In this document: positions 20,137-26,392 of the stretch, piece by piece
Layout: every line of letters starts with the position of its first letter
How positions within the stretch are numbered: position 1 is the first letter of the stretch
Assembly: GCA_963845085.1 (NCBI GenBank)
Contig: CAWJQI010000004.1
Span: 256,001 to 320,000 of the forward strand
Source of the DNA: Candidatus Fermentibacterota bacterium
GTDB lineage: Bacteria; Fermentibacterota; Fermentibacteria; Fermentibacterales; JCC-6
Reading direction: 5' to 3'
DNA length: 64,000 bases
The notes under the pieces: model-generated
Told to the model about the DNA's origin: nothing
Databases searched by the model: none
Seen by the model: the letters and a program-made list of their open reading frames with translations, nothing else
Made by a program: the position numbers and the translations under genes

Positions 20137-21134
20137 TCAACGCAAAACAGAGAAGTCCGCAGACTGCCTCCAGCCCGCGCCCGAGACAAGCAGATGATAA
20201 GCACCGGATGGCAGCCCATCAACGACCACGGTACAACCGCCGGCTTCGAACACGCCGTCCTGCATGAACACGGTTCGGCCAGCGGTGTCGAACACCTCGA
20301 CCGCCACCCGTTCTTCACCACCGAGCGTGAACATGACATCGACAGCACCCATGGAGGGGTTGGGAGTCACTCTCAATTCGGAACGCAGCGGGATTAGCGT
20401 GCCTTCCTCGATTGCTCCCATGTCCATGCAGTATCGGTTGATGACCCCGAGGACGGGATCGCTGAAGTAGAACCGGTTGTTCTCGGCTTGCCGCCCCAAC
20501 CCCCACTGCGCCAGCGAATTCGACCATTATAAAGCACCTCGTAGGCATCGGGTTCGTAGTACATCCTCACCGGCGAGACCGGATCGTTGCACGCCACGGG
20601 GTAGAACATGTCTCCGTATCTCGGAGCGGAGATGTCGTGCACCTCGGGGCAGTTCAATAACGCGATCCGCTCGACCGGGTCACTGGTACCCAGTGGCAAA
20701 TCAATGCTGTAGATGACGTTGGCAGCGGAGTCGATGAAGTACAGACGCCAAGTTCCGCCCCAGTAATACTCGTCCAGCCCCGTAATGCTTGCGATGCCAA
20801 AGCCGGAATAGTCCCATGTGCCGGCCGGCTGGCCGCCCGTCGTCATCGCATGCACAACGGCCGTGCCGCTCTCGGCGAAGTACAGGGTGTCATCCGAGAG
20901 TGCGAGCCCGACAGCCTTCTTTTCCATCGTCGGCAGCTGAACCGTGCCCAGAAGAGCTCCGGTATGGTAGTTAACGGCGTAGACCATGCAATCAAGCGAA
21001 TCAACGGCATAGACTGTTTGGCCTTCGCACGCAAGGCCGGTGATGTGATCAGAGGGCGCGGGGAAGCTCCATTCGATCGCCTGGCTGAATGCGGTACAGG
21101 CAAGAAGGATGATGAGCAAAGCTGAAAGTCTCAT
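20137..21134 (-). pseudogene. Secreted beta-propeller protein with T9SS type-A-like C-terminal domain, frameshifted near 20490-20525 (true pseudogene or sequencing error)
   Basis: Signal peptide MRLSALLIILLACTAFS after AGGAGG. The reading continues across three frames: ...EVLYNG / EFAGAVGVG / AENNRFYFSDP...LRVTPNPS...VEVFDTAGRTV...LPSGAYHLLV. Confidence 0.7.
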
Positions 21135-21256
21135 TATCATACCTCCTGACATATATTAAGACACCTGTTAGAATATATTAAGTGAGCTGACGGAACGCAA
21201 TCGGGGGCTTTACATTCCCTACCTTTCATGTATGTATTGCGGGAAAGGAGGTTCCC

Positions 21257-21877
21257 ATGAAATCACTCGCGGGAACGTTGCTGCTCTGTACCGGTCTATG
21301 CTGGGCAGCGGTGATAGTCGGATCACCCGAGACCCCCTCGATGGACCCTTTCTGCGCGTCTTGAGGAAGCCAGATGCGCTATCAGGTGATGGCGCTCTCT
21401 TCCGAGATGGACGGAGCCATGACGATCGGTTCGATAGCATGGCAGAGGGGCGGATCAGCCGGTTCAACCACCGGCTACTACAACAGCTTCAAGCTCTATG
21501 TGGGCGTCGCCTCGACTGACGAGCTCACAACAACCTTCGAGGACAACTACGTCCCCGGCACCAGGACCCTGGTTTACGAAACAGCATCGCAGACCATGAC
21601 CGCCGGACCCGATGAGTGGATGACGATCAACCTCGACACCCCCTTCTGGTACAACGGCACGGATAACCTTGTGGTTGAGCTTGTGTGGATCGGCGGCTCC
21701 AACATGTTCTACACGTACAAGTGGAATGCCGGTTCGAATCGCGCGCTCGAGAACGGCGACGACATCACCTCCCCCACGGGCACGCTCAGCCAGAGCATGT
21801 CCGAACTCGCTTTCGACGGTCCCCTGAGCCTGACCAGGTACAGTTTCGGAGCCATCAAGGCGTTCTGGGCGGAGTAG
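21257..21877 (+). CDS. Putative secreted selenoprotein, 206 aa, Sec at codon 36 in a CxxU motif
   Basis: AAAGGAGG RBS, then ATG 21257: MKSLAGTLLLCTGLCWAAVIVGSPETPSMDPFCAS-TGA(21362-21364)-GSQMRYQ..., in frame with the 21374..21877 ORF. A SECIS-like hairpin follows the TGA. Confidence 0.8.
21365..21403 (+). promoter_or_regulatory. Bacterial SECIS-like stem-loop
   Basis: GGAAG-cc-AGA-u-GCGCUAUC-[AGGU]-GAUGGCGC-UCU-CUUCC: 16 bp by manual pairing, a bulged U, and an apical AGGU loop at +20 to +23 after the UGA. Confidence 0.75.
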
Positions 21878-21918: not shown

Positions 21919-21952
21919 AGAAGGGGTGGGGAAAAATCCCACCCCTTCTTTG
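21919..21952 (+). terminator. Intrinsic terminator of the candidate selenoprotein gene
   Basis: AGAAGGGGTGGG-gaaaaat-CCCACCCCTTCT followed by TT. Confidence 0.75.
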
Positions 21953-24566: not shown

Positions 24567-26392
24567 TTACCTCACCACAACTACCCGGGCATCGGCAGCG
24601 AAACCCGCACCCGAGGCACGCACGAGATATACACCCGATGGAGTTTCGAAGGCGTTCCACCGGAGCAGATTCTCTCCGGAATCAAGAACACCCCGGTGCA
24701 ACTCTTCCACCAGACGGCCGTCCAGTCCGTATACCGAGACGATGCAGTCAACGGGTTCCGGAAGGCTCAGGTGAACGACTGCTGTTGTGGTTGCAGGGCT
24801 GGGGCTGACACTGAGCCGGAGTGCAGGCTCCTCCTCTATCCCCAGTGGATCGTAGGTCACAGTGACCGAGTTGAGCTGGGGGGAGACTGAGGGATTGTCG
24901 CTGAGCATCGTCACCCGGTACTGCAGGTAGCTCTCGCCGTCGGCAAGGTATGTGGACAGGTCAGCAGGGGCGTAGAGCAATGCACTCCACTCCCCGAGGT
25001 TCCCGGGATCATCGGAACCCCTCACCTGGAAGCAGAGCTGGGTCTCGGCGGGAACAGAAGCATCCCAGGAAAGCTCTCCCCACGAAGCGTCGTTCACGTA
25101 CAGAATGTCGCTGTTGAGCCAGCCCGAAGAACAGAAGTCCTCACCAAGACGCCACCAGTAGAGGTCGGGATGCTTGTCACCGTAGAAGCTGCACACAAAG
25201 TCTTCCACCCCGTTGCCGTCGAAGTCGCCAGGGGCGACAAGACCACCGGCGCTTTCGGAATCGAGACCGTTTGAGAACGGGTACTCCATGAGAACCCTCT
25301 GGACGAACCTCTCCTGTGGGCTCCGGGTATTCTCGAACATCCCCACGCTGTTCTCTCCCCGGTAGATGATGTCCATGTCGCCGTCGCTGTCGTAGTCGAT
25401 GGATGCCAGGCCGTAGACGTTGTCATTGGTCTCCAGGTTGTAGTAGGGGTAGAACTCGGGTCCCTTGTACCAGCGGATGCGGCCGTAGTCGTAGCTCTGT
25501 CCCCCAGCCATCAAATCAGCAGTTCCGTCGGTATCAAGATCAACGAAGCTGGGAAACACTCTGAAGTATTTATGCAGGGTGGAGATACTACTTTATAGGC
25601 GTACCAGCCGGAAGGACCATCTCTCAAGAATGTAGACCATGCTCGCTGGTTCCTGCGACAAGCATGACAGCGACAGAAAGATACCCGTCGCCTGTGATGT
25701 AGGCTGCAGCCATTTCTGGACCACTGTAGCCTCCAGCTACTTCATGGATATACAGAACAGACTTAGTCCAGGTAAGTCCGCCTCCAAGGTTCCTGTAGAA
25801 AAGAAGTCTCGCACTGTCATTTACATAATCATTTAGCATGCTAATAATATCATTTTTGCCATCTCCATCCAAGTCCACAACAACACCCGAAACAGGATCG
25901 ATCTGTCTCCACCAGTCTTCTCTGCCATTCCTGGTTGGGGTCGTTCGGGTTCTCCCACCAGAAGAGAGAGTCTGCTCCTCCGACTGCATCATCAAGACCA
26001 TCACCATTCAAGATCGCCTGCGAAGATCGTCACGATGCTGTCGGCGGAACCAACGAACTGGCTTGGCCACAGGTACGGATTACCATTGAGATGGATACGC
26101 CCAAATGGACTGTCCGAAGGCACATGAGCAGATCTGTGTAAGTCATCGCCATTGATGTGTGCGTGCTCTGAGAAGGAACGTCGCCATTATCAGACACCTT
26201 TGCCGATTCCAGCGCCGCACCCAGAGTCAAAGCTCCCTGAGCCTGCCATCCCATGCCGGAGCAGGAGCCGAAGTCCGATCCCCAGTCTGTTGTTGTGACT
26301 TCTCCCGAGGGGCCGCCGCTCCAGTCGGTCTGAACCATCGATGCCGCAAGAACCATGCCGGTTGTCAGAAGAACAAGCGCTGCGCTTTTCAT
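24567..26392 (-). pseudogene. FG-GAP/VCBS repeat secreted protein with T9SS-like C-terminal domain; N-terminal half broken by several indels and stops
   Basis: Signal peptide plus QTDWSGG at 26392. FG-GAP repeats (DLDGDGKND, DLDTDGTAD, DYDSDGDMD, GDFDGNGVED) are spread over different frames between about 25560 and 26170. The 3' part is intact and ends VYGLDGRLV...PSGVYLVRA. Confidence 0.75.

Follow-up and report, generated by a model that had tools for sequence, protein, structure and literature searches.

Catalogued bacterial selenoproteins are mostly thioredoxin-like proteins or metalloenzymes, and those placed outside the cytoplasm provide the closest points of comparison for the locus described here. 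The Omp28-related selenoprotein (GOS_C; NF045500) has a signal peptide, a thioredoxin-like UxxC motif and a T9SS type A C-terminal domain. SaoB (CU) and SaoX of the SAO system, in the portion of the account available (10.1101/2022.07.06.499078), are extracytoplasmic, non-thioredoxin proteins of the ABC substrate-binding fold that carry Cys or Sec at the binding site, and belong to a nine-gene operon that often lies beside double-cubane proteins. The TonB-dependent receptor of the FCYXU type (NF049945), as entered in the accessible Table 1 of PMC13188914, is an envelope selenoprotein with an F-C-x-x-U motif, built as an outer-membrane barrel.

We analysed a window of 64,000 nt from a Candidatus Fermentibacterota genome, in which the gene at 21257-21877 on the forward strand very probably encodes a selenoprotein. 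Judged on its sequence, this gene belongs to an uncatalogued family of predicted exported jelly-roll selenoproteins that is of the SelB/SECIS class on every feature tested. With other selenoproteins of that class the family shares the in-frame UGA, the downstream hairpin, selABCD, Cys homologs and a CxxU or CU motif, but unlike the catalogued families it reaches 12-13 Sec paralogs per genome. Like the Omp28-related selenoprotein it has a predicted signal peptide, and distant relatives of that protein are found in the same genomes, often adjoining, but the two have no sequence match. The family recalls the SAO proteins in its predicted extracytoplasmic location, its non-thioredoxin fold, its Cys/Sec at a putative binding site and the double-cubane neighbours of some loci. 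However, its genes form paralog arrays with no sao gene among the annotated neighbours, and no NCBIfam Sao model gave a match. The FCYXU receptor is alike in motif and envelope setting, but its model, NF049945, does not match the query. Whereas most catalogued selenoproteins have thioredoxin-like or metalloenzyme scaffolds, in this family Sec is carried by a lectin-type fold that follows a predicted signal peptide.

The initial annotation had suggested that the family was possibly undescribed, and our comparisons agree. NCBIfam 20.0 and Pfam models gave no meaningful match, in a scan that left outside a few entries of PMC13188914 Table 1 defined by CDD/PANTHER identifiers or by none. In the accessible form of that table, the descriptions of the 119 families name no CBM, lectin or jelly-roll protein. 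Literature searches, in which most subscription papers were out of reach, returned no description of a jelly-roll selenoprotein family. According to the available part of its description, the inputs of BSepDB (PMC13326102) include Fermentibacterota genomes.

The full coding sequence, as delimited by sequence, homologs and structural model, comprises 206 codons including Sec36. The initial annotation had placed the true start at ATG 21257 behind a strong ribosome-binding site, which was borne out: a Shine–Dalgarno sequence, AAAGGAGG at 21244-21251 (as a feature, AAAGGAGGT at 21244-21252), precedes this codon. Codons 33-36 read C33-A-S-U36, with Cys33 at 21353-21355 and the in-frame UGA at 21362-21364, and the frame is open through to the TAG at 21877. 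C12 and C15 sit within the predicted signal peptide, and Cys33 is, as proposed, the only Cys of the predicted mature chain. The ATG chosen by gene callers (21374-21376) is an unconserved false start that yields a truncated 167-aa form, in frame with the TGA back to ATG 21257. An ATG within eight codons past the UGA is found in only 16/54 Sec members from Fermentibacterota and 3/77 from a second phylum (see below). Gene callers shorten most members of the family, and the predicted misannotation was evident in the databases, where 59 homologs, from Ca. Aegiribacteria and Ca. Fermentibacteria, are mostly N-truncated forms of 150-168 aa, 'hypothetical' where named. Upstream, a weak sigma70-like promoter candidate, CTGACA-17-TG-TAGAAT, lies at 21146-21174 (one found against 0.6 expected in shuffles). 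The gene had also been credited with its own terminator. A strong GC-rich hairpin at 21919-21949 (-24 kcal/mol, z -3.7) makes one probable, but its U-tract is short and a consensus terminator scan around the gene called 0 terminators.

Absent from the initial annotation was a bacterial SECIS element at 21365-21403, with a core stem at 21376-21395 and an energy of -21.3 kcal/mol (z -3.2) that was reached by 0/200 shuffles. [quoted passage not shown] The query hairpin fits this model in energy, in its apical loop (AGGU) and in the 19 nt between UGA and loop. Across 30 Fermentibacterota sequences, 90.8% of cells were paired with 19 two-sided changes; 0/500 shuffles reached this covariation and slid registers gave at most eight two-sided changes, in a test that kinship among the sequences can inflate. 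A stem of at least 6 bp was present in 53/54 Fermentibacterota Sec genes from fetched loci and in 0/11 Cys genes (one partial gene left out); it should be noted that the TGA-free loci were picked deliberately, so the Sec:Cys ratio of this sample is no population figure. The second phylum (Ca. Coatesbacteria by one named match) has a different hairpin, centred one codon later, CCAG-GNN-CTGG, at 21 or 24 nt. It falls at the same Gln codon, with 90.9% of cells paired and 39 two-sided cells (0/500 shuffles), and with a number of further pair types no higher than in shuffles. Under a strict 6-bp rule the hairpin was found in 55/77 second-phylum Sec genes and 0/22 others. Two lineage-specific SECIS shapes on the same Gln codon give a clear example of how an RNA structure has evolved within a protein-coding strand.

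The source genome (88% complete) appears equipped to decode such an element. As the initial annotation had required of a true selenoprotein, selA, selB, selD and tRNA-Sec (selC, one copy) were all above cut-off, and selD itself contains an in-frame TGA. Could TGA 21362 instead be a true stop, a sequencing error or a codon reassigned to Trp, Gly or Cys? Such a reading gains something from the probable indel errors near the gene in this assembly, seen in the frameshifted neighbour at 20137-21152. However, TGA is the commonest stop codon in the source genome, ending 646/961 long ORFs, which shows that it is not reassigned there, and one tRNA-Sec stands above cut-off. Dozens of species from both phyla also retain the TGA, each lineage having its own covarying SECIS element, which is absent from Cys genes. 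Homologs show TGA or TGC/TGT at the column of codon 36, the pattern that the initial annotation had named as support for Sec; among the eight family paralogs of the source genome, seven have TGA and one has Cys-Cys. Conservation extends to either side of the UGA, which the initial annotation had likewise named as support. The downstream ATG is unconserved, and in the eight codons before the TGA, 13 orthologs differ 216 times at codon position 3 against 59 times at positions 1 and 2 together. We therefore consider a true stop, an error or a reassigned codon very unlikely, and already largely refuted. Contig evidence was weak: a DNA contig from a relative covers the TGA, and none of the changes listed falls there. 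In a search of sequencing runs, no run contained half of the query's words, and three RNA-library contigs matched only downstream parts (21408-21758), which is not a sign of transcription. Taken on sequence evidence, translation would almost certainly start at ATG 21257, SelB would read the SECIS within the ORF, UGA 36 would be decoded as Sec, and export across the inner membrane would be directed by a signal peptide of 17 residues.

The family was detected in 69/70 Fermentibacterota genomes with 355 matches, and an internal TGA was present in 131 among the 150 matches listed; 67/70 of the genomes have a selA match, 63 of them above cut-off. The motif is CxxU in 50/54 Fermentibacterota Sec members, and the Cys homologs carry TGC/TGT at the Sec column without the hairpin. 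Variant motifs include C-A-P-I-G-I-G-U, with Cys seven residues before Sec, in loci L074, L076 and L077, and S-G-S-U in L025. Among 331 sampled genomes outside Fermentibacterota, with seven candidates per genome scored, 11 matched at E 1e-8. In nine of these the module lacks an internal TGA and nearly always sits in a long frame; the other two, which belong to the second phylum, have full TGA copies. The second phylum, identified as Ca. Coatesbacteria by one named match (an 87%-identical protein of Ca. Coatesbacteria RBG_13_66_14), has the family in 21/25 genomes at up to 29 copies per genome. A selA match occurs in 25/25 of these genomes (21 above cut-off), with selB and tRNA-Sec in 5/5 genomes checked. 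TGA copies number 13/29, 12/29 and 13/22 in three genomes of one genus. The 101 second-phylum genes read from fetched loci comprise 77 Sec, 2 Cys, 20 with neither and 2 partial genes. CxxU accounts for 30/77 of the Sec members and most others are CU (FRGCU, FYGCU, FSACU). The 20 genes without Cys or Sec have aromatic-rich loops, lack the hairpin and form a subgroup seen only in this phylum. Arrays of 7-9 paralog types hold a similar order among second-phylum genomes; in L111, L113-L115 and L117 they lie between a double-cubane reductase and surE-secDF and mix CU, CxxU and Sec-free (YYGGGG) loops. In a midpoint-rooted tree with weak deep support, the two phyla are largely apart and the Cys and Sec-free forms nest among Sec forms. 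Insensitive pattern scans found two loci in genome_contigs and none confirmed in metagenome_contigs.

The AF2 model, built from 88 sequences with U modelled as C, is all-beta save for the signal and tail helices (pLDDT 91.8, pTM 0.85). AF2, Foldseek and VIA together predict a galactose-binding-like jelly-roll domain at residues 19-187 (21311-21817). The initial annotation had described an apparently non-thioredoxin protein with a body resembling beta-sandwich modules of surface proteins, and both parts gained support: no Pfam thioredoxin match was obtained, no thioredoxin chain was among the listed Foldseek and VIA fold matches, and the module is repeated in large surface proteins without CxxU. 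The top fold match was the phage tail-tip chain 9d93 (Z 11.7, rmsd 5.4, 164 aligned), followed by the N-terminal CBM-like domain of acetyl xylan esterase PbeAcXE (7tog; Z 11.1, rmsd 3.4, 156 aligned), a PVA esterase (9kqz; Z 10.2, rmsd 4.4, 159 aligned), the lectin-like domain of Cwp84 (4ci7; Z 9.9, rmsd 3.3, 145 aligned) and a PHR domain (3gbw; Z 9.4, rmsd 3.8, 144 aligned). The galactose-binding-like jelly rolls among them (7tog, 9kqz, 4ci7, 3gbw) are alike in fold but only 6-14% identical, and fold alone gives no function. A PDB sequence search with the query protein gave no match, and short family members had no Pfam match to a named CBM family. An ESM Atlas query with a natural Cys homolog returned as nearest clusters 'hypothetical' Fermentibacterota proteins with no Pfam assignment; a DUF7451 match at 0.84 is a lead only.

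Searched against 1.84 billion representatives, the jelly-roll domain had 677 matches. Among the best 150 of these, the domain recurs two to seven times in lipoprotein-like proteins of 550-600 aa, and it also occurs in large proteins alongside CBM96, PKD, Ig, fn3, MAM or T9SS domains. P0070, P0105 and about 55 similar lipoprotein-like proteins of 550-600 aa have three jelly-roll copies, and five of them tested had no Pfam match. Only 1/180 domains covering the loop in long homologs has CxxC there, which indicates that CxxU was added to a pre-existing surface binding module. The C33-x-x-U36 loop may lie at the same end of the model as the variable loops 65-71, 116-120 and 146-152, to judge by strand order alone. 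In CBM32-type modules the variable-loop end is the ligand end. We rejected the idea that C33 was ancestrally disulfide-bonded to a Cys at 147-158, as the two showed no association in long homologs (2/8; p=1.0). A thioester or selenoester adhesin acting through the invariant Gln43, modelled on TED domains, was set aside because Gln43 is retained in Cys-free long homologs too.

The predicted signal peptide (residues 1-17; 21257-21307) would be of the SPI type of the Sec pathway, with neither a twin-arginine motif nor a lipobox. A crude hydrophobicity test was positive for 53/54 Fermentibacterota Sec members, where the start lay 26-45 codons upstream, and for 76/77 second-phylum Sec members. A script found a Tat motif in 0 of the Sec members tested, and the Fermentibacterota Sec genes also lack a lipobox. 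The protein ends in a 17-residue tail, L-x-L-x-x-x-[ST]-[FW]-G-x-I-K-A-x-[FW] (21824-21874), a candidate sorting or docking tag that forms a helix at residues 197-204 of the AF2 model. This motif ends 30 ORFs of the source genome against 0.6 expected, including unrelated exported proteins. SprA and PorV are present in the source genome. The query protein had no match to the T9SS C-terminal domain of about 70 Ig-like residues (TIGR04183 / PF18962), and may therefore stay periplasmic. A short form of the tail, [TS][FW][GA]x[ILV]K, was also seen on second-phylum proteins, and six tandem paralogs of another exported protein of ~205 aa, ending TTWGAVKALF, lie at G000:C5:541581-545954 (-).

The neighbours of the query gene itself were uninformative on function, and related loci were more revealing. 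An Omp28-like thioredoxin gene lies at most 1.5 kb from 14 of the 19 TGA-free family matches listed, and one further pair was found by direct reading (L080). The neighbouring Omp28-like proteins are exported CxxC thioredoxins with a T9SS domain. In L066 and L069, Sec-Sec pairs of a family gene and an Omp28-like gene lie between yedF and selD, beside selA, and in L067 a family gene is flanked by a yedF-like gene and a selD gene. In 11/59 loci examined, from 10 genomes, the next gene on that strand, 63-191 nt downstream, is a Fer4_5 NapH/NosR-like one.

Because of these Omp28-like/sel-cluster and Fer4_5 neighbours, we favour an exported thiol/selenol relay. For the CxxU query gene, an exported redox site, in which the Cys/Sec pair of the jelly roll works with an Omp28-like thioredoxin and a NapH/NosR-like protein, is the best reading, at a little short of even odds. 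A redox-active Cys/Sec pair would have been grafted onto an existing surface binding module, and the jelly-roll domain would bind its target outside the cytoplasm. The selenolate would attack a disulfide, polysulfide or peroxide-type bond, a C33-U36 selenenylsulfide would close, and this could be re-reduced by the exported Omp28-like thioredoxin (CxxC/UxxC), with electrons supplied by the NapH/NosR-like 4Fe-4S protein in the membrane. Targets would differ among paralogs according to their loops, and the C-terminal tail may be an address for the outer membrane or the surface. In the available parts of the literature, Fermentibacterota are anaerobic fermenters of sulfur-rich habitats (PMC5030696, PMC5763382), a setting that fits sulfur-bond chemistry without testing it.

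Several observations weigh against an exported relay. Many family members are CU, SxxU or GxxU (47/77 second-phylum Sec members are not CxxU) and 20/101 second-phylum genes have neither Cys nor Sec, so redox chemistry is unnecessary for the family as a whole. The source genome encodes four Sec-type Omp28-like genes, but none lies within 3.5 kb of its eight family copies. The query's own neighbours are silent, and the neighbour counts come from related genomes that are not phylogenetically independent. The lack of a canonical T9SS C-terminal domain, with the periplasmic location that this allows, also counts against the relay. When a Cys-form jelly roll was modelled in complex with the Omp28-like protein encoded next to it, the runs scored 0.02, 0.78 and 0.02, a median below the 0.32 mark, and we give them no weight for or against the relay.

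Omp28-like genes with an in-frame TGA, a GU-x-x-C motif and a hairpin at 19 nt are found at G000:C5:499622(-), C5:786648(+), C4:684398(-) and C4:51844(+). In-frame TGA (GU-x-x-C) genes of the same kind occur at L066:4418-5416 and L069:2378-3376. Relatives of the Sec-type Omp28-like genes score far under the NF045500 cut-off. The Fer4_5 protein encoded directly downstream of family genes at L023:2265-3560 (G000:C4:763928-765298) and L072:6318-7724 has at its N-terminus three Cys-rich repeats (CPLG...ACP...CAL...D-D-DG-CDNP) with no Pfam match.

A different set of neighbours points towards metals. In the second phylum, L112 and L116 each have a pair of CU paralogs behind nikR-cbiM-N-Q-O, in the same orientation. 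Two CU paralogs also stand behind a partial operon in L125 (from cbiN) and L123 (from cbiO), and one in L124. Six second-phylum loci have a CU array that begins next to, and runs away from, a divergent double-cubane reductase gene (NF040772, above cut-off). In Fermentibacterota, a family gene lies at most 1.7 kb away in 4/21 loci of one double-cubane subtype, against 0.3 expected, and three of these four genes are CU forms with SECIS. These links would suit an exported capture site for soft metals, by analogy with SaoB/SaoX but on a different fold. Its tip would present a Cys/Sec pair (CxxU or CU) as chelator for Ni, Co, Cu, Hg or an organometallic compound, and the bound ligand would go on to uptake or a double-cubane reductase. 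CU motifs, metal transport and double-cubane proteins have been linked by Haft and Gwadz, in the available part of their account (10.1101/2022.07.06.499078). However, the second-phylum loci, whether linked to nikR-cbiMNQO or to a double-cubane reductase, all come from one Coatesbacteria genus and three of the four Fermentibacterota loci from one genus, which reduces the association to about three independent events. Furthermore, 17/21 double-cubane loci lack a family gene, and the query is CxxU with no nikR-cbi or double-cubane neighbour. Overall we regard metal capture as possible but rather improbable; by analogy, the nikR-cbiMNQO and double-cubane links would favour metal or organometal capture most for the CU forms.

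The resemblance of the fold to CBM-like and lectin-like domains, the aromatic-rich loops of Sec-free paralogs and the conserved order of arrays of 7-9 paralog types, which resemble a binding repertoire, could also be explained by a lectin or adhesin with a structural Cys-Sec bond, an Se-S staple closed in anoxic, sulfidic surroundings. The copies inside the yedF/selD/selA cluster would suit a non-catalytic selenium store or carrier. We consider either role unlikely: vicinal CU and Cys-less SxxU would make poor staples, a single Sec per protein is a poor store, and C33 is unlinked to a second Cys in long homologs (2/8; p=1.0).

Returning to redox and metal chemistry together, we tentatively speculate, while thinking it improbable as a whole, that an exported repertoire of selenium-tipped binding proteins operates in two uncultured anaerobic phyla. 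Arrays of tailed lectin-fold proteins, up to 29 copies with about 13 Sec, would carry CxxU, CU or aromatic tips and be wired to Sec-thioredoxins, membrane ferredoxin, Ni/Co uptake and double-cubane reductase, for redox chemistry or metal/organometal capture outside the cytoplasm. If true, this would represent a new kind of envelope selenium biochemistry, beyond one more selenoprotein. The family offers a single small, well-folding domain in natural Sec, Cys and residue-free forms, making the contribution of selenium outside the cell directly testable.

Finally, two loci near the gene in the window encode secreted proteins of other kinds. The divergent neighbour at 20137-21152 (-) is propeller-like, with a T9SS-type tail in another frame; it is frameshifted near G-runs at about 20500, a probable assembly indel or pseudogene. 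At 24567-26392 (-), a secreted protein made of repeats and ending in a T9SS-like tail seems to be split into several short ORFs.
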